From a virus (lineage: Duplodnaviria > Caudoviricetes), in IMG/VR virus record IMGVR_UViG_3300006922_000005: a stretch of DNA of 64,000 nucleotides, one strand, 5' to 3'. Made by a program: the position numbers and the translations under genes. Under the pieces are notes generated by a model. It was not told where the DNA came from, made no database searches, and saw only the letters and a list, made by a program, of their open reading frames with translations. How positions within the stretch are numbered: position 1 is the first letter of the stretch; the number at the start of each line of letters is the position of its first letter. Shown here piece after piece: positions 36,153 through 43,593 of the stretch.

Positions 36153-36308
36153 TTATTTCTTTTGTTTCTTTTGTTTCTTTTTTACATGCAGTTTTGCATG
36201 TGGTACTTTTAAATTTTTCTTGCCATACACATCGCCTATTTTATGCTTGTATGACATATGTGCCGGATCTAATCCGTAGAAGTAATCTGTTACTTCACAT
36301 ATTTTCAT
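36153..36308 (-). CDS. Small basic putative internal-head protein (51 aa; not in the ORF track)
   Basis: MKICEVTD leader; Lys-rich tail; TAATG overlap. Confidence 0.55.
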   Translation of the reverse strand: MKICEVTDYFYGLDPAHMSYKHKIGDVYGKKNLKVPHAKLHVKKKQKKQKK

Positions 36309-36898
36309 TACTCAAACTCTTTCAAAAAACTTGCAAACCCTTTTGTTAGAGATTGTTCTGTTGTAATTTTTCCTGATTTATGATCTTTTTCTAATTCTTG
36401 TCTACGTCTTATTAGTTCTTTTTTAAGTTTAGGATCTTTAGATGTGTTTGGATCCATTTGAATATCTTGTAATGCTTTTCTTTTTGCTCGATATTCTTCG
36501 TTACTCATTTGTTTTAAACCTTCAAGGCTTTCAAACACTTTTGCTAGTGTATTTTCAATTTTTGAAAGTCTACTGTCTACTTCATGCCACTTATCGTTAT
36601 ATGTTTGTTGTGTAGGTACAGTTGATTCTACTATGCGTTGTGGTTGTGGTGCTTGTGGAGTTACACTACTTAACCCTGCTAGTGCGGCCATATCACTTGC
36701 TCTAGTATCGCTTACACCAGGAATATGTTTTCCTTTAATACTTTCTGCAACCATACGTGCATGGGAGTTAGCATCTGTGCTTTGATTATTATTTTGTTCT
36801 TGTAACGCTTGACCGTGTTGTGGAGCGTCTACAGTAAGTCCTTTATTTTCAATTCCTAACTCAGTAAACTTATTTAAAATGCTTTGTAAATCTGCCAT
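36308..36898 (-). CDS. Hypothetical, putative internal-head protein
   Basis: CTTAAATA late-like core just upstream; MADLQSILNKF leader. Confidence 0.6.
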   Translation of the reverse strand: MADLQSILNKFTELGIENKGLTVDAPQHGQALQEQNNNQSTDANSHARMVAESIKGKHIPGVSDTRASDMAALAGLSSVTPQAPQPQRIVESTVPTQQTYNDKWHEVDSRLSKIENTLAKVFESLEGLKQMSNEEYRAKRKALQDIQMDPNTSKDPKLKKELIRRRQELEKDHKSGKITTEQSLTKGFASFLKEFE

Positions 36899-36904
36899 AA
36901 TTAT

Positions 36905-37060
36905 TTAAGAGACACTTTTGGATTTAGTGTTTCCTCCTCCTTGTCTTTTTTTACGTCCTGCACAATGAGCCTTTTGTGAGAAACCTTTGGGGTTCGAACA
37001 GTCAATTGACTTTTTATGTTTCTTGCTCCAGGCTTCACTAATAATCTCATAGTACCTCAT
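36905..37060 (-). CDS. Small basic Cys-containing protein (51 aa; not in the ORF track)
   Basis: MRYYEIISEA-WSKKHKKSIDCSNPKGFSQKAHCAGRKK; ATGA overlap. Confidence 0.7.
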   Translation of the reverse strand: MRYYEIISEAWSKKHKKSIDCSNPKGFSQKAHCAGRKKRQGGGNTKSKSVS

Positions 37061-37455
37061 TTCTTTTTAGTGGCAACGTTTTTTGCTTTACCACGTCTAT
37101 TTTTGTTTGGATCTTGTCTACGTTTTCTACTAGCCGCAGACTTCCTTCCTTTTTTACCTAATGATTGTGCTTTACTACGAGGTAAACATTTTGGCTTACC
37201 TTCACTGTTTGAGCCTCTTGCACAGTCACCACGAATTTTTCCATCAGGGCCAAAACGTACCCATTTATCTTTAAACCACTTTTTTAAGTTTTCGTCTATG
37301 GATTCAGAAAATACTAAATCACCACAATTTACACAGAAGTCAACATCTTCATTTTTAACACAATTAGGTACACGTTTTCCGAACATAGTTTTCATGCCCT
37401 TCTTTTTGTAGCCTTTCCAGCATCGTGTTCCTTCAGTGACTTCTATAATACGCAT
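37057..37455 (-). CDS. Basic Cys-rich modular protein, putative internal-head protein
   Basis: MRIIEVTEG leader; CWKGY...VPNCVK and LKKWFKDKW...KPKCLP modules. Confidence 0.7.
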   Translation of the reverse strand: MRIIEVTEGTRCWKGYKKKGMKTMFGKRVPNCVKNEDVDFCVNCGDLVFSESIDENLKKWFKDKWVRFGPDGKIRGDCARGSNSEGKPKCLPRSKAQSLGKKGRKSAASRKRRQDPNKNRRGKAKNVATKKK

Positions 37456-37862
37456 TAATCTTTATCCCAACTCTTACTTACTTTATCTGTATGTATTGGT
37501 CCACCACCGGCCCATGTTCTACAAGTTCTAGCACTGTGACATTTAAATTTGTGCATCCAGCAATAACCTAAATATCCATCTTCATCTTCTAGTTCACCTG
37601 GCATACATTCAAGCATACCTGGACTAATATCAAAAGCGGCACAACTATTACATAAAGTTTTTTCTGCGGCGTCTACACTTGTTTTCCAAAACTTTGCAAT
37701 CTTTTCATAATAGTCACCTGGATGTTTTACATTCAATGGACCATACTGAATATGTTCTGCTTGTATAGCGGCATTACGATTCTTAGTATTAAGTTCTAAA
37801 TCTTGTGTTGCTAGTGGGCAACCTTTTTCACCTGCTTCTACGATTGCAATTAAGTTTCTCAT
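37455..37862 (-). CDS. Cys-rich (putative Zn-binding) protein, putative internal-head protein
   Basis: MRNLIAIVEA leader; CxxC, YCWMHKFKC..ARTC. Confidence 0.7.
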   Translation of the reverse strand: MRNLIAIVEAGEKGCPLATQDLELNTKNRNAAIQAEHIQYGPLNVKHPGDYYEKIAKFWKTSVDAAEKTLCNSCAAFDISPGMLECMPGELEDEDGYLGYCWMHKFKCHSARTCRTWAGGGPIHTDKVSKSWDKD

Positions 37863-38461
37863 GATTTACTATTTCCCCAGTTCTTAGCACCTTTTTTACG
37901 ACACTGTACTAGAGCACCACTTGCATATGCACTTGGCCATACTTTGTAACGTGCTTTAACTTTATGATAACAAGCATCTTTTTCACCAGCGGCTTCGTCA
38001 AATTGTGCTTCTGTCATAGTCTGTGCTGATTCAACAAATACTTCTACCATGTCATCGCCATTACGCAATGCACCTTTTTTAACTTTTACGTTTTCTTTGC
38101 CGTATTTTTTTGTTGCTTCTTCTGGAGACATTGAAGTTTGTTTCCAACGCTTCTCTGCTTCCTTTACTACTGATAATTTTTCTTCTAGTGATTCAAAATA
38201 ATCATCTTTTTGATCTTTCATACTCATCATACGTTCACGTTCTTTGGCTTGCATACGCTCGCCTTCCATGTAAGCATGAAGTGTTTTTACTTTTTCGTGT
38301 ACACCACTGAATTTGTTTTGAAACCACTCAGGGAATGTTCCACCCTTGTGTACATGGTCATGAATTTCTTCTACTGCGTATTTGATGTATGCAACCTGAT
38401 TGGCAAGCATTTCATCTTCGTACTTTGATGCTGGCTCATCGTACTTGTCTTCATTAATCAT
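37859..38461 (-). CDS. Modular putative internal-head protein
   Basis: Three Glu-delimited modules ending DACYHKVKARYKVWPSAYASGALVQCRK. Confidence 0.7.
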   Translation of the reverse strand: MINEDKYDEPASKYEDEMLANQVAYIKYAVEEIHDHVHKGGTFPEWFQNKFSGVHEKVKTLHAYMEGERMQAKERERMMSMKDQKDDYFESLEEKLSVVKEAEKRWKQTSMSPEEATKKYGKENVKVKKGALRNGDDMVEVFVESAQTMTEAQFDEAAGEKDACYHKVKARYKVWPSAYASGALVQCRKKGAKNWGNSKS

Positions 38462-38496
38462 CGATTGCTCCTATAATGTGTTTTGTATTATACGAG

Positions 38497-38503
38497 TATT
38501 TAT
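38497..38503 (-). promoter_or_regulatory. T4-like late promoter core (cgATAAATActc)
   Basis: ATAAATA upstream of 38461 start. Confidence 0.65.
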
Positions 38504-39069
38504 CGTTTTAGTGGTCCGCCGAAGATAGATGTGTCTTTCATATTAAGAGCATTATCTGTTGGCTTTTGCTTTTTTGCTTTAGGAGGATTAGGTAAACCGC
38601 CTACTAAACCGTATTTTTTACGTGTTTTTGCGTCACCTATTGCTAAATGCGGACTTGCAACTGAGGCAATGTTACCTGCACTAGTTGCTCCTGCTGTTGC
38701 TGTTTCTTCAACTTGTTCTAATCCTTTAAATATATCGCTAGATTCTTGACTAAGTTTGGCCGCAATAGCCATTTGTCTACGTTTTGCTTTGCTTTTACCT
38801 TTAAATTGCGGAGCATCGCTTTTGTAGAAATCTTTAATAACATCACCCATTTCAGTATCTTTAGTAATCTTTTCAGATACAAAACTTTCAAACTGTTGTT
38901 CCATAGGTGTTTTTTTGTATTTTTCTTTACGTGGGATAGTCTTAGTTTTATCTTTATGAGAGCCAGATGCGCCACTTTTACGTAGTGCTTCCATATCACG
39001 CCAATTAGGATCACGTGATTTACTTGGTTCTAATTTTTTTACTGCTTCTACTAAGTCTTTTAAACGCAT
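38500..39069 (-). CDS. Modular putative internal-head protein
   Basis: MRLKDLVEA leader; DFYKSDAPQFKGKSK.KRR.MAIAA and ETATAGATSAG modules. Confidence 0.7.
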   Translation of the reverse strand: MRLKDLVEAVKKLEPSKSRDPNWRDMEALRKSGASGSHKDKTKTIPRKEKYKKTPMEQQFESFVSEKITKDTEMGDVIKDFYKSDAPQFKGKSKAKRRQMAIAAKLSQESSDIFKGLEQVEETATAGATSAGNIASVASPHLAIGDAKTRKKYGLVGGLPNPPKAKKQKPTDNALNMKDTSIFGGPLKR

Positions 39070-39077
39070 ATTGATAT

Positions 39078-39269
39078 TTACCTATCTTTAAGAATATTTT
39101 TCATAACATTAGTTGCTGTATTAGTAAAGCATCTTGGAGCAATACTATGTACTAGTAGTGCAGGTACTAGCAGTTGTAATTTTACTGCTGTTTTAATTGC
39201 CTTCCTCATATGCTGTAATCCTGTTTCACCTTGTTCTTCTAAGTGTAGTTTACATTGTTTACTTAACAT
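39078..39269 (-). CDS. Small hypothetical protein
   Basis: Stop/start overlap; HLEEQGETGLQHM. Confidence 0.6.
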   Translation of the reverse strand: MLSKQCKLHLEEQGETGLQHMRKAIKTAVKLQLLVPALLVHSIAPRCFTNTATNVMKNILKDR

Positions 39270-40057
39270 TACGCCGCCTCTCTTTCTTTTTCTTTACTAG
39301 CAATCCACTTCATCATATTTGTAGCAGGGTTTGCCAAGTACCATCCAACGTCACTATATGTTTTAAATTTACTTGCTAATAGATCTGCTGATATAGATGA
39401 AAAGGACCTTCTATTTTGTACAGTTATTAATTCTTTAACTTTTTTACCACCAAACGTACTTAAAAAAGATTGTAAGTTTAGCATATAATAGAAAGGTGTA
39501 TCTAATATAACTTCACCTTTGTGTTGACTATAACTAGGAATACCTTTTTGATAGCCACTTAATATTTTTTGCATTTCCTCATCTGGTAAATCTTCGCGAC
39601 CTTGCCCACGGACTAATGTTCCGCCTTGGTCATCATATGCTCCTTTTTGAAATTTTGGATCATATCCTTTGAAGCCACCCAAGTCGTCTATGTCTGGGTT
39701 CCAATAAGCAGTAAAGTCACCACCTGGAATTATTATATGATTTGTACCAAAATAGTCACTAGTACTACTAGGTGCTACTGTAGTTGTTTGTGCAGGACTA
39801 ACAATGTTTAAATCGTTAAGCACTGCTACCTGTATAGGATTGTGATTTCCCATTACGCTTTTTCTTGCAGGGTTATCTACCTTTTGTATTAGATTTTGTT
39901 TAGCACCGCCGTGGTATGTGCCTGTGTGCATTGCCCTATAAAGAATAGGTTGGTTTCCCATTTTACTACAAAGTTCAGCGGCAACTTTTAAACGCTCTAT
40001 AGCATGTTCTGTATTATTAGTTGGTGTAACAACTTCTGTTACTTCGCATATCCTCAT
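39269..40057 (-). CDS. Putative ADP-ribosyltransferase-fold protein
   Basis: LYRA (Arg), TTT/STS..YFG..HIIIP, GEVIL (Glu); MRICEVTEV leader. Confidence 0.5.
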   Translation of the reverse strand: MRICEVTEVVTPTNNTEHAIERLKVAAELCSKMGNQPILYRAMHTGTYHGGAKQNLIQKVDNPARKSVMGNHNPIQVAVLNDLNIVSPAQTTTVAPSSTSDYFGTNHIIIPGGDFTAYWNPDIDDLGGFKGYDPKFQKGAYDDQGGTLVRGQGREDLPDEEMQKILSGYQKGIPSYSQHKGEVILDTPFYYMLNLQSFLSTFGGKKVKELITVQNRRSFSSISADLLASKFKTYSDVGWYLANPATNMMKWIASKEKEREAA

Positions 40058-40761
40058 TTCTTTTTGCCACTCTTCATATTAGCACACCAGTGATACATCT
40101 TTGCTTTTTCACCACTTGCTTTTTTAGCCTTTGCTCTTAAACTTGTAACTGATCCGTTACAACTAGCACCCGACTTCTTTACTCTGCCTGGGCGACTCTT
40201 GCCCTTTTTTTTACCGTCTGCGAAGTTTTCTTTTACTTTATTATTATCTAAGTGTAATAGTATTGTTTTAAAACTTCTTTCAAACTTATGATCTTTGTGT
40301 TTGACTCCAATGCCTCCCGCGGCATTCCATTTGTCAATATTTTGTCCAAAGTCATCTATCAGTATGTTGGGAGTACCATCACTTTGCTGTGCGTACTTGG
40401 CTTTGTTTCCTGTGATGATTACTGATTTAGGTGGAAACTGTTTAAGATTGTTTTTCACCCACATACGTTTATGTGGTTCTGATCTAGGATCGTCAGCCAA
40501 AGGCGAACTTAAAATAGTATAACTGCCTTTATGTTTTTGAATCAAAGCCAAAAGTTTTCCTGCGTTAGGAGTAGGTTCGAGATCTAACCAAAAGTTGTCT
40601 GCATCTCTAATTGCTTGAAGACCTGCATCGATATCTTTAATATCACGAAAGTCTTTTGCACCCATAAGTTTTGCCCAAGCACCAAAGAAGTCAACAAGGA
40701 CACCGTCCATGTCTACGTAGATTTCAGGTTTTGAATTATTACTGATTTCAAATAATCTCAT
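40054..40761 (-). CDS. HAD-family 5'(3')-deoxyribonucleotidase with basic C-terminal module
   Basis: IYVDMDGVLVDF, ILSSP, K..W, ILIDD; MRLFEIS leader. Confidence 0.85.
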   Translation of the reverse strand: MRLFEISNNSKPEIYVDMDGVLVDFFGAWAKLMGAKDFRDIKDIDAGLQAIRDADNFWLDLEPTPNAGKLLALIQKHKGSYTILSSPLADDPRSEPHKRMWVKNNLKQFPPKSVIITGNKAKYAQQSDGTPNILIDDFGQNIDKWNAAGGIGVKHKDHKFERSFKTILLHLDNNKVKENFADGKKKGKSRPGRVKKSGASCNGSVTSLRAKAKKASGEKAKMYHWCANMKSGKKK

Positions 40762-40973
40762 TTACGTCCTCTAAATCCTTTAAATCCTGCGCCAGTCATA
40801 TAAGGTCTTGAAAACCATAATTCAAACCATTCTTTGTCACCAGGTTTGACACCTAACTTACGTTCTTTATCTTTTAGTTCTTGTGCAGTATGTGACATGT
40901 TTTCTAATGTTTGATGATTATCATTTCTAACAATATCTACACCTGCTAATTTTTTTAACTCATCTAATGTCAT
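40758..40973 (-). CDS. Small hypothetical protein
   Basis: MTLDELKKLAG; ATGA overlaps on both sides. Confidence 0.65.
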   Translation of the reverse strand: MTLDELKKLAGVDIVRNDNHQTLENMSHTAQELKDKERKLGVKPGDKEWFELWFSRPYMTGAGFKGFRGRK

Positions 40974-41836
40974 ATTAGTTTGTACGCTTTCATCATTTTT
41001 TTAAGAGTACCTTTTTTAACATCTTTAGTTGTGTTTTGCTTTGTAATAATTCCAACGCCGGCGGCTTCTGTACTTTTTATTGCATCTTGTTTAAATGCTT
41101 TATCTACGCCAATTTTACTTGCCATGGCTCTACGTTTTTTAAGTTTATCTGCAACACTTAATTCTTCTGGTTCAGGTGGACGTCTTTTAACAGTGTTTCT
41201 TTTTGGAGTTCTAGTTGCAAACCCCATTATCTCATTTACTTCAAGACCCATTCCTTTGCGTACTCTAGCAAACATTTGTTTAGCAAGAGTTTCATTTCCT
41301 GAAATACCTTGTGCAAAACTAGTAAAATCATCGTCAGCGGCAAACTGTCTTAGTTTACTTGCACTCATACCTTGTACACCTTCAGCATCAGGATCACGTT
41401 CTCCACTGCTTACTACTTTTGCATTTGCAAACGTAAAAGGAACTTCACCTTTAGTATCTGGCTTATTATTGTACTTGTCAATTAAATCTTGATATTGTTG
41501 CACTCTATCACTTCCTGCAACAAGTATAACATTATCATAACCTTTACCTTGTAGATGTTGAAACATTTGAATAATAGTTTTTACACTAGTATTTTTATCT
41601 ACAGGTACATTAAACATTTCTTGAGCAAAATGTAATTTTTCTGCAAATGATAATGGATCTGTTTTTGGTTTTTGTGTTTTAGTTAAAAACAAAATAGGAT
41701 CACCCATAAACTTTTGTGCATGTTGATTAACAACATCTATAACTTTTTGGTGACCTATAGTTGGCGGATTCATTCTTCCCCAAGCAACTACTGCTGTCTT
41801 CTTTGGTTGTGCTTCAAGCAGTTCGTTGAGTAGCAT
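40970..41836 (-). CDS. HIGH-superfamily nucleotidyltransferase (cytidyltransferase-like)
   Basis: WGRMNPPTIGH, VAGSDR, SSGERDPD, GMSASKLR; MLLNELLEA leader. Confidence 0.82.
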   Translation of the reverse strand: MLLNELLEAQPKKTAVVAWGRMNPPTIGHQKVIDVVNQHAQKFMGDPILFLTKTQKPKTDPLSFAEKLHFAQEMFNVPVDKNTSVKTIIQMFQHLQGKGYDNVILVAGSDRVQQYQDLIDKYNNKPDTKGEVPFTFANAKVVSSGERDPDAEGVQGMSASKLRQFAADDDFTSFAQGISGNETLAKQMFARVRKGMGLEVNEIMGFATRTPKRNTVKRRPPEPEELSVADKLKKRRAMASKIGVDKAFKQDAIKSTEAAGVGIITKQNTTKDVKKGTLKKMMKAYKLI

Positions 41837-42196
41837 TTAAGCCTCCTTGGTATCGTATGCGCCGTCTTTAATGTGTGGTAGGTGTTTTTCCGCTAGTTTG
41901 TGACATATACTAGACATTAACTCTTGTGTGTAAACTTCTTCAGTCTTGCCAGATATGTTATAAGTTTCGTTGTACTTCATACAACCTGCTGTAACCATTG
42001 CTTCAAAGTATGGTGCAACTTCTTCAATTGAATCTTTTTCAACAATATTTTTTCTTTTTAGATCTGCTATAGCAGGTAAAAAGAATTCTTTATGGATTGA
42101 ATCGTCATTATCAATGAAGAAACTAATATCATCTATTAAGTCGTATTGTGGAGTACTATTATCGCTGTCTGCTGTAAAAAGTTCTTTTAATAACAT
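41837..42196 (-). CDS. Hypothetical protein
   Basis: MLLKELF leader; abuts neighbours. Confidence 0.65.
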   Translation of the reverse strand: MLLKELFTADSDNSTPQYDLIDDISFFIDNDDSIHKEFFLPAIADLKRKNIVEKDSIEEVAPYFEAMVTAGCMKYNETYNISGKTEEVYTQELMSSICHKLAEKHLPHIKDGAYDTKEA

Positions 42197-42202
42197 GTGT
42201 AA

Positions 42203-43564
42203 TTACCATTTTCTACATGACCAGTAACGTGCCTTAGTCTTAGGACCAGGATTGTCACAGTTGTGTCTAGCACGGAAACTTCTACGTCTTGCTGGATTAG
42301 ATTTTTTAATTCTCATATCCGGATCACCAAAGTTAACTTTAACTACATTACCTTTTGGATTCTTAACGTATACTTTAAACTTTTTAACATCACCACGCAT
42401 TGGTTTGTTTAGTTTAACAGTACGTCCTTGGTATTCTGCTTCTACAACATTTTCGTCATTTTCTTCAATCCAACCAAATGCTTCATAAAACTCATCTCCA
42501 TTAAATGATACATCAGTCTGTCCTTTAAACCATTCTGTTGCTTCTACATCTTCTGAATAAAAATCTAATTGAGGATCTTTAAATAATCTTTTTGCAAGTT
42601 GTGGATCTTTAGAAAATGATTTTTTAAATCTTCCTATTAGTTCTTCTCTTGGTGATGTATCTAAACTTGCTGGCATCATATGGTCAACAACATCTTCGAT
42701 GTCCATGTCTGGGTTATCAAGAATCGCTTTCACATACTTTTGCATATCTTTTAAATCTCTAAGGTATGGCATTATCATATCTATGTCGCCACCTTCTTCT
42801 CCAGTGTCGCCACCTGCTTTGTAAGTTTCTATATCTTGTCTTGCAGTTTGAAGATCAGTTAGTAACGTTTTGTAAGTCATCTTTACAAATGGTAATACTT
42901 CATCATAGGTTACACTATCTCTGTCGAAGTCTGATTCATTTGTTGACTCGTCTACTGGAGAAAATGACATGTGGTCTTTACATTTACTACACACTGCGTT
43001 GCCGTCTTTGTCTATTTCGCTATCTGCAGGTGCACCACAACAGTCACTTAACATGTCTGGTTCATCTTCTGATTCACTTACATCTTCTGTTGATTCCATT
43101 TCAGATGCATCAGGTGCATCACTATCTTTGTATGTACTTTGATCAGCATCTCTTTCAATATCCATACTGCGTATTGCATGTTTAATAACTTCAAAAGCAA
43201 GTGTCTGTTCTTCTTTAGACATAGTGCCTTTTTCTTTTTCGCTGAGTTCACCAACGAACATACTTAATTCTATTTGTGCATCTGACGATGGTTTAATACG
43301 TTGTGCAATTTCACCTAGTAATCTGCCTGGAGAGCGTTTTAGTTCGTCTTGATATAATGCAAGTCTTACTTTTGGATCAGTTAGGTCTTTGCCTTTGAAT
43401 GCTACATTGTTAGCAATGCTGTATTCGTTTTGTGCTGGTGTTGGGGGTGTAAAAGTAATATCCTTTACATGATTAATTGCATCGCTAAACTTCATTCTCT
43501 CCGGTTCTTTTTTGGCTTCCGTATTGAAAGAATCAAGTTTGTTTATTAGTGTTCTGAAATCCAT
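42203..43564 (-). CDS. Acidic modular putative internal-head/scaffold protein
   Basis: AAGGAG RBS and late promoter; acidic linkers, CCG..C..C..H module, basic C-terminal EAEYQGR...ARYWSCRKW module. Confidence 0.7.
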   Translation of the reverse strand: MDFRTLINKLDSFNTEAKKEPERMKFSDAINHVKDITFTPPTPAQNEYSIANNVAFKGKDLTDPKVRLALYQDELKRSPGRLLGEIAQRIKPSSDAQIELSMFVGELSEKEKGTMSKEEQTLAFEVIKHAIRSMDIERDADQSTYKDSDAPDASEMESTEDVSESEDEPDMLSDCCGAPADSEIDKDGNAVCSKCKDHMSFSPVDESTNESDFDRDSVTYDEVLPFVKMTYKTLLTDLQTARQDIETYKAGGDTGEEGGDIDMIMPYLRDLKDMQKYVKAILDNPDMDIEDVVDHMMPASLDTSPREELIGRFKKSFSKDPQLAKRLFKDPQLDFYSEDVEATEWFKGQTDVSFNGDEFYEAFGWIEENDENVVEAEYQGRTVKLNKPMRGDVKKFKVYVKNPKGNVVKVNFGDPDMRIKKSNPARRRSFRARHNCDNPGPKTKARYWSCRKW

Positions 43565-43586: not shown

Positions 43587-43593
43587 TATTTAT
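43587..43593 (-). promoter_or_regulatory. T4-like late promoter core (taATAAATActc)
   Basis: ATAAATA heading the 36-43.6 kb cassette. Confidence 0.7.

Follow-up and report, generated by a model that had tools for sequence, protein, structure and literature searches.

A predicted T4-type capsid-targeting leader on a modular late-gene cassette of an uncultured marine jumbo phage

The 64,000-nt stretch of viral DNA in IMG/VR record IMGVR_UViG_3300006922_000005 (here the window, meaning the whole stretch analyzed) contains at positions 36153–43564 a block of 14 minus-strand genes that abut or overlap each other. Most of their products begin with a similar short N-terminal leader. The block is likely a hyperplastic late-gene cassette in which a local version of the T4-type capsid-targeting and protease-cleavage leader stands on modular, mostly basic cargo bound for the prohead interior. 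Judged from its genes, the phage is an uncultured marine jumbo myovirus of the Rak2/Atu_ph07/PA5oct type, distantly related to T4. We infer that its leader proteins are targeted and cleaved, located in the head, and delivered into the host, and its packaged cargo is probably readable from sequence.

We set a core leader pattern, ^M[RKLT]-h-x-[ED]-h (h, hydrophobic; x, any residue), in advance from the description in the original prediction for this DNA and left it unchanged in later tests. It matched 9/14 block genes and 0/89 other called open reading frames (ORFs) of the window (Fisher p = 8e-10), in agreement with the earlier claim that the leader is confined to the block. The ten N-termini quoted in that prediction were all present on the minus strand at the genes to which they had been assigned, but not all belonged to one leader family. 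Nine matched the core pattern. MRNLIAIVEA missed it, though its I-V-E/A ends at residue 9 (slashes mark predicted cut sites), and MTLDELKK fit the loose pattern yet belongs to a different tag family, L-K-K-L-A-G-V, that copies the C-terminus of the scaffold protein. The leaders of the block read M-[KRL]-h-x-[ED]-h, in most cases with x-E next, and end in (L/I/V)-x-E sites that precede a small residue (VTE/G, VTE/V, ISE/A, IVE/A, LVE/A, LLE/A), with Asp replacing the final Glu in one gene. The genes for the 453-, 200-, 196-, and 63-amino acid (aa) proteins have no leader. The bodies behind the leaders had been described as sharing nothing else. Their families do differ or could not be assigned, but several also share shuffled short basic modules that contain Cys.

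Synonymous codons varied among the leaders (AGG/CGT/AGA, ATA/ATT, GTA/GTC, ACA/ACT). Because the codons differ for the same residues, selection acts on the peptide and not on the DNA; for the same reason we discarded the idea that the common N-terminus derives from a repeat or recombination cassette at the DNA level. Within the 262-aa family, M1, E5, and E8 were invariant at 46–80% orthologue identity while adjoining positions varied, which also indicates constraint on the peptide.

Relatives kept the leader while the gene content of their cassettes varied. The 262-aa gene was present in 21 IMG/VR loci, and no cultured phage carrying a homologue of its product was found. Where both flanks were in view, the cassettes of relatives were bounded on one side by the gene for ribonucleotide reductase and on the other by a large conserved gene that probably encodes DNA polymerase. 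Around the cassette in the 21 relatives, 47/275 unique ORFs carried the leader on differing bodies, with examples such as MKINEITEE, MRLREITEG, MLLRELFEA, MKIHDIISEA, and MRIRELFES. IMG/VR contig G007 (84 kb) was collinear with window positions 551–39069 at protein identities of 60–95%, and this contig, 80–90% identical, held a different gene set at the cassette position. The G007 cassette includes a 39-aa ORF with 11 Cys (MTECKCENCGCNHHCGKECEKC..., L059 2069–2188) that is absent from the window.

The leader has the anatomy of the T4 capsid-targeting sequence (CTS). T4 records agree with the CTS cited in the original prediction, as IPII and IPIII start MKTYQEFIAE/A, and IPI starts MKTFKEF...ITE/A. 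The CTS is likewise a tag of ~10 residues at the extreme N-terminus of unrelated basic late proteins (IPI–IPIII; Mullaney & Black 1996, PMC9026906), and its locus, like the block, is variable in the manner of an arms race. Its layout, M-K-x-h-x-E-h-(h)-x-E/A with a terminal (L/I)-x-E site for the gp21-type protease, is the same here. Residues 4 and 7 of the T4 tag act in targeting and residues 8 and 10 in processing, and Asp at cut position 10 of IPIII stops processing but not targeting or import (PMC9026906). The local tag is one to two residues shorter than that of T4, and as a result its hydrophobic residue behind the first acidic position also serves as P3. Compared with three tagged genes in T4, about ten occur here in one cassette, the cargo includes enzymes and multi-module chains, and the same site is reused as an internal linker. 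The present phage is also a ~350-kb jumbo myovirus in which tag function is predicted from the genes. MRYYEIISE aligned to MKTYQEFIAE with one gap, too few residues to establish a common origin.

In the mechanism that we propose, the 8–9-residue leader M-[KR]-[ILV]-x-[ED]-[ILVF]-x-E would be the capsid-targeting sequence of this lineage. By analogy with T4 residues 4 and 7, the hydrophobic residues 3 and 6 would attach the nascent protein to the scaffold core, and an S77 prohead protease of the gp21 type would cut off the tag at the terminal h-x-E. The cargo chain would consist of an NT5C nucleotidase, a nucleotidyltransferase, the 262-aa protein, and many basic two-Cys modules of 30–80 residues, and h-x-E between modules would allow the protease to free them inside the head. 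Two extra tags in the block would mimic head proteins, one an N-terminal copy of the scaffold LKKLAG tail and the other an internal copy of the probable capsid-protein maturation site. The h-x-E junction rule and the two head-mimicking tags are our additions to the original prediction.

T4-type head genes are present in the lineage. The window DNA polymerase shared 45–52% identity with its counterparts in Sinorhizobium phage Phosso, Agrobacterium phage Atu_ph07, a 349-kb Vibrio phage, and the Rak2/121Q group. A 111-kb relative contig had a CheckV completeness of 31%, pointing to a genome of about 350 kb. The S77 protease and gp22-/gp23-type head genes were not visible within the 64-kb window, and the first five relative contigs contained neither the S77 protease nor gp23. 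Using a protein from the tail-fiber region of the window as the query against IMG/VR, we retrieved contigs that bear the protease. In G007 the head module is ordered portal, small leader protein, acidic core protein, protease, scaffold, and capsid protein, where the protease is a Peptidase_S77 (T4 gp21-type) prohead protease (E 2.6e-27) and the capsid protein matches T4 gp23 (E 2.4e-40). The S77 protease and gp22-/gp23-type genes were also present in contigs G010 and G011, and Atu_ph07 encodes homologues of T4 gp20, gp21, and gp23 (Table S3, PMC6102473).

The motif was enriched among virion proteins of two cultured relatives. Both comparisons used annotated start codons only and omitted other in-frame starts, for example those of Atu_ph07 gp377 (virion-detected) and PA5oct EST35_0271. 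Among the 714 genes of Atu_ph07, 140 are virion-associated by electrospray ionization tandem mass spectrometry (ESI-MS/MS; Table S5, PMC6102473). Virion products were detected for 13/19 motif genes (gp43, 46, 47, 53, 196, 199, 381, 482, 483, 487, 548, 561, and 672) vs 127/695 others (p = 3.6e-6), and for 13/16 motif genes without Thr at position 2. The GenBank record of PA5oct flags 93 virion proteins by ESI-MS/MS, which included 7/11 motif genes vs 86/434 others (p = 0.002). Pooling the two phages gave p = 2.5e-8. A small leader gene right after the portal gene was kept in G007, G010, Atu_ph07 (gp199, E 1e-5), and PA5oct (EST35_0150), and both gp199 and EST35_0150 were virion-detected. Three large leader-bearing proteins of Atu_ph07, gp53, gp482, and gp483, had their highest abundance in gel bands at much lower mass than predicted for them, which fits cleavage. 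When the block proteins themselves were compared with these phages, tblastn against Atu_ph07 gave only two weak, unrelated matches, and the nucleotidyltransferase was the sole match in PA5oct. The PA5oct homologue, EST35_0307, has no leader and no basic extension and was undetected in virions, a single natural contrast.

Sites resembling the end of the leader also separate modules within the cargo. We used BLAST among all cassette proteins to find modules that are leader-proximal in one protein and deep inside another. An h-x-E stood at 28/29 internal junctions matching a leader-proximal module, with 8.1 expected from motif density. The NFADGKKKGK module, found behind the leader MRFREIIE/ in the 69-aa genes that loci L010–L012 carry, follows VKE/ (window, residue 178), VEE/, LEE/, or IEE/ at internal positions. 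The DGRIVKGVN module follows several leaders and, internally, FKE/. The NT5C domain follows the leader in the window and FLE/A inside a 546-aa chain. In relatives (L008 285–1925, L017 11816–13762), NT5C, a HEGRNRM (ParB/sulfiredoxin-like) segment, and other modules are fused into chains of 546–648 aa with one leader.

Within the window, the basic Cys module of the 235-aa protein (residues 179–235, window 40057–40227) comes after NKVKE/N. The basic C-terminal modules of the 453-aa protein (residues 376–453, window 42206–42439) and the 200-aa protein (residues 157–200, window 37862–37993) come after NVVE/A and AQFDE/A, respectively, and the second module of the 132-aa protein (from residue 56, window 37060–37290) after SIDE/N. 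Three PHROG families made up of small free-standing proteins, phrog_23735, phrog_3477, and phrog_12753, match the 132-aa protein from profile position 3 onward, each with its first aligned residue exactly at 56, immediately behind SIDE/. Positions 5–96 of 96 in phrog_7595 match residues 373–453 of the 453-aa protein, and the C-terminus of the 200-aa protein is matched by phrog_727, phrog_38880, and phrog_3477. The isoelectric point (pI) was >9 in 8/14 block proteins and the C-terminal 40 residues were basic in 12/14, compared with a median pI of 5.5 in the rest of the window and values of 8.9–9.5 for T4 IPI, IPII, and IPIII. Two enzymes are recognizable in the block, a deoxyribonucleotidase of the NT5C type and a cytidylyltransferase-like nucleotidyltransferase.

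Two block proteins carry copies of head-protein sequences. The internal module of the 189-aa protein (residues 123–189, window 38503–38703) begins at the site GLEQVEE/TATAGATSAGNIASVA, which nearly repeats RRYLAE/SATAGATSAGNVATL of the G007 capsid protein. In alignment, this part of the capsid protein corresponds to the beginning of mature T4 gp23, and YLAE/ is a probable maturation site at a predicted position. The capsid proteins of Atu_ph07 (PLME/NATAGATSSGN) and PA5oct (FLVE/NASAGATQAGN) have the same arrangement, and the PA5oct virion protein EST35_0203 carries KVEE/TASAGASSAGGIASVA. Residues 70–112 of the 189-aa protein resemble Atu_ph07 gp205 (E 1e-6), a virion protein whose gene adjoins the prohead protease. 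The second copy is that of the scaffold tail, which ends in ...IELRKLAGLN in G007 (L057 16510–17601), ...DLKRLAGIKK in Atu_ph07, and ...ELRRLAGIK in PA5oct. In all scanned sets, [LI]x[KR]LAG[VIL] occurred at the extreme C-terminus of the scaffold in G007, G010, Atu_ph07, and PA5oct and at the N-terminus of the 71-aa family, with two further internal copies in the PA5oct virion proteins EST35_0203 and EST35_0235. Proteins with the motif in their N-terminus, Atu_ph07 gp257 and PA5oct EST35_0203, were virion-detected. The N-terminal copy in the 71-aa protein may represent a second route into the prohead.

The block is preceded by late-promoter-like boxes. The two late promoters proposed earlier are exact ATAAATA boxes on the minus strand. 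The first (43587–43593) lies 29 nt upstream of the 453-aa gene, which has an AAGGAG Shine-Dalgarno, and the second (38497–38503) lies 42 nt upstream of the 200-aa gene, which has a TAGGAG Shine-Dalgarno. ATAAATA was ~4-fold depleted in the window (8 observed vs 33.4 ± 6.1 expected), and all copies (15815, 38497, 43587, 46137, 51428, 54159, 61820, and 62040) were on the minus strand, with 7/8 located 12–42 nt upstream of a gene start on the same strand. In G007 the box precedes the operon that begins just upstream of the portal gene and runs from portal to capsid protein, as well as a 221-aa gene starting MKINEVAVLNE. The same box lies upstream of both block sub-operons and of the G007 head operon. 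ATAAATA behaves like a late-promoter core of this phage and is one base shorter than T4 TATAAATA. A scan for sigma-70 promoters and terminators found nothing above shuffled sequence.

The capsid-import tag of the original prediction is partly supported, by the T4 CTS anatomy, the S77 protease in the lineage, the T4-late-like promoters, and the enrichment of the motif in virions of relatives, with the correction that MTLDELKK is a second kind of tag. Several points weigh against import and cleavage of the leader proteins. The window phage is known from sequence alone, and virion detection belongs to its relatives, which are distant (~45–52% DNA polymerase identity for Atu_ph07 and the Rak2 group, 46% scaffold identity for the PA5oct group). 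Atu_ph07 virions were purified with polyethylene glycol only, and 6/19 motif genes in Atu_ph07 and 4/11 in PA5oct were undetected in virions. The detected virion proteins include no full-length orthologue of a window cassette protein, only matches at the level of modules. The cleavage position of the capsid protein is predicted. The 29 junctions are not independent events because they fall into about 7–8 module families. Finally, Shine-Dalgarno sequences are few in the leader genes and starts are coupled to stops, and some translational constraint on the first codons is possible.

A broader version of capsid import, which we advance tentatively, would make the cassette a "cargo train" in which any module behind a leader or h-x-E linker, or bearing a copy of the LKKLAG tail or capsid site, is imported, freed by the head protease, and enters the host together with the DNA, the whole forming a fast-shuffling kit for counter-defense and DNA protection. 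The set, predictable from sequence in abundant uncultured marine phages, would consist of nucleotide-acting enzymes and dozens of small basic two-Cys peptides. Some of the products may be structural or DNA-neutralizing internal peptides rather than effectors.

The later fate of the products is the point on which a narrower explanation differs. Here, the leader and h-x-E would mark where the protease cuts proteins of the prohead core or internal-peptide type, whose products aid large-head assembly or neutralize DNA charge and are largely degraded, without acting as host effectors. The tiny size and high basicity of most modules favor it, as do the scaffold-tail and capsid-site mimics and the module that the 189-aa protein shares with gp205, encoded beside the protease. 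T4 core proteins gp22, gp67, and gp68 are cut in the same way. We nevertheless consider this explanation rather unlikely, as the tag also stands on intact-looking enzymes (NT5C and the nucleotidyltransferase) and cassette content differs even at 80–90% identity, which is typical of arms-race cargo and not of assembly parts. It overlaps with the capsid-import reading on both targeting and cleavage.

Explanations in which the leader has no role in the head fare much worse. A common N-terminus shaped by how translation starts (favored early codons) in a coupled operon that has no Shine-Dalgarno sequences, or an inherited 5'-end duplication with no sorting role, would agree with the finding that leader genes abut or overlap the preceding stop, mostly without a Shine-Dalgarno, and that neither gene with a strong Shine-Dalgarno has a leader. 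It is very improbable given that residues are kept while codons vary, that the same peptide pattern recurs internally as a linker, that the motif predicts virion presence in two phages of different gene order, and that the 89 other window ORFs, many also coupled, have no motif. Sorting or stability elsewhere, by tail or baseplate attachment or by phage Clp/ClpS recognition, is equally remote: virion proteomes do not separate head from tail and both Atu_ph07 and PA5oct encode ClpX, ClpP, and ClpS, but in sequence the tag most resembles the T4 head CTS, the portal gene is flanked by leader genes, the cut sites match the probable capsid-protein maturation site, and a basic cargo is well suited to being packed alongside DNA.

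Should the tag function as it does in T4, N-termini alone would predict the packaged, and possibly injected, proteome of an abundant uncultured group of jumbo phages. The cassette would then be a catalog of candidate early-acting effectors, including the nucleotidase, the nucleotidyltransferase, and enzymes of unknown type. Three concrete, testable rules for entry into large capsids emerge from the h-x-E junctions and from the mimics of the scaffold tail and the capsid site, and these could be reused for loading jumbo-phage heads with foreign proteins.

Our literature searches turned up no account of leaders of this kind in the Rak2/Atu_ph07/PA5oct group. In phiKZ/SPN3US-type giant phages the cut motif is (S/A/G)-x-E. 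The propeptide-bearing ejection proteins of these phages (PMC5694885, PMC7411985, PMC10052503) resemble what is proposed here in that many head-internal proteins are matured by a prohead protease cutting after Glu and giant capsids hold large cargo sets. These phages belong to an unrelated lineage, and in the titles and abstracts of the three papers a short uniform tag at the N-terminus is not mentioned. T4 Alt, an ADP-ribosyltransferase packaged with a gp21-processed propeptide (PMC9026906, PMC5694885), represents a similar enzyme-in-head arrangement, whereas the enzymes recognized here act on nucleotides.

The genes of the block, given in order of transcription and all on the minus strand, start with that of the acidic 453-aa protein (42203–43564), which begins MDFRTLINKL and has no CTS-like leader. 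This start resembles MDFNALQHKL in relatives and MDFRQIRALLEG of Atu_ph07 gp205, and MDF..L may be a third conserved N-terminal class. The acidic 119-aa protein (41837–42196, leader MLLKELF) had no family match in domain or PHROG profile searches. The 288-aa cytidylyltransferase-like nucleotidyltransferase (40970–41836, leader MLLNELLE/A) has a basic C-terminal extension and matches PF01467 (E 1.2e-4) and phrog_3041 (E 1.4e-47). The 71-aa protein with the scaffold-tail copy (40758–40973) starts MTLDELKKLAGV. The 235-aa 5'(3')-deoxyribonucleotidase (NT5C/HAD; 40054–40761, leader MRLFEIS) matches PF06941 (E 1.2e-7) and phrog_2643 (E 1.8e-24). Next are the conserved 262-aa cargo protein (39269–40057, leader MRICEVTE/V) and a basic 63-aa protein without leader (MLSKQCKLHLEE, 39078–39269) whose gene is kept beside it, followed by the basic 189-aa protein (38500–39069, leader MRLKDLVE/A).

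The second sub-operon begins with the 200-aa protein (37859–38461), which starts MINEDKYDE. The Cys-rich 135-aa protein (37455–37862) has the variant leader MRNLIAIVE/A and no family match in domain or PHROG profile searches. The 132-aa protein (37057–37455) is very basic (pI 10.3), with the leader MRIIEVTE/G followed by a CWKGYKKKG module. A basic 51-aa protein (36905–37060) has the leader closest to T4 MKTYQEFIAE/A, MRYYEIISE/A. The 196-aa protein (MADLQSILNKFTE, 36308–36898) has no core leader and is conserved in G007. The last gene encodes another basic 51-aa protein (36153–36308) with the leader MKICEVTD, in which Asp replaces the final Glu; its G007 orthologue reads MKIKEVVDYFYG.

The 262-aa protein, considered against the catalytic Arg / Ser-Thr-Ser / Glu arrangement of R-S-E ADP-ribosyltransferases, has conserved YR, GTN, and GEV motifs and no Pfam, PHROG, or PDB-sequence match, including in a profile search of PDB sequences. 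Its AlphaFold2 model was poor (predicted local distance difference test score 34) and built on a shallow alignment. Atlas feature matches to Arr and DarT/PARP scored only 0.87 and provide a weak lead toward an ADP-ribosyltransferase-like protein.

Some modules also occur outside jumbo phages. Pelagiphage Kolga gp56 (79 aa, MAKYQGRTVKLNKP...) is nearly the same as the C-terminus of the 453-aa protein after NVVE/AEYQGRTVKLNKP, and Kolga gp57 (32 aa) is a free-standing CWKGY module. Kolga gp56 and gp57 match the peptides predicted to be released from the 453-aa and 132-aa proteins, and the same near-identity to predicted released modules holds for pelagiphage Aegir (gp56, gp57) and PHROG 7595/23735. 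In Kolga and Aegir the modules are independent genes without leader or linker, unlike in the window. At the nucleotide level, window 42182–42468, in a small basic module, was 75% identical over 287 nt to two Pelagibacter siphoviruses (Kolga gp56, gp57; L077). This nucleotide identity suggests that the jumbo phage and the siphoviruses draw on one marine gene pool, and the host may be related to SAR11.

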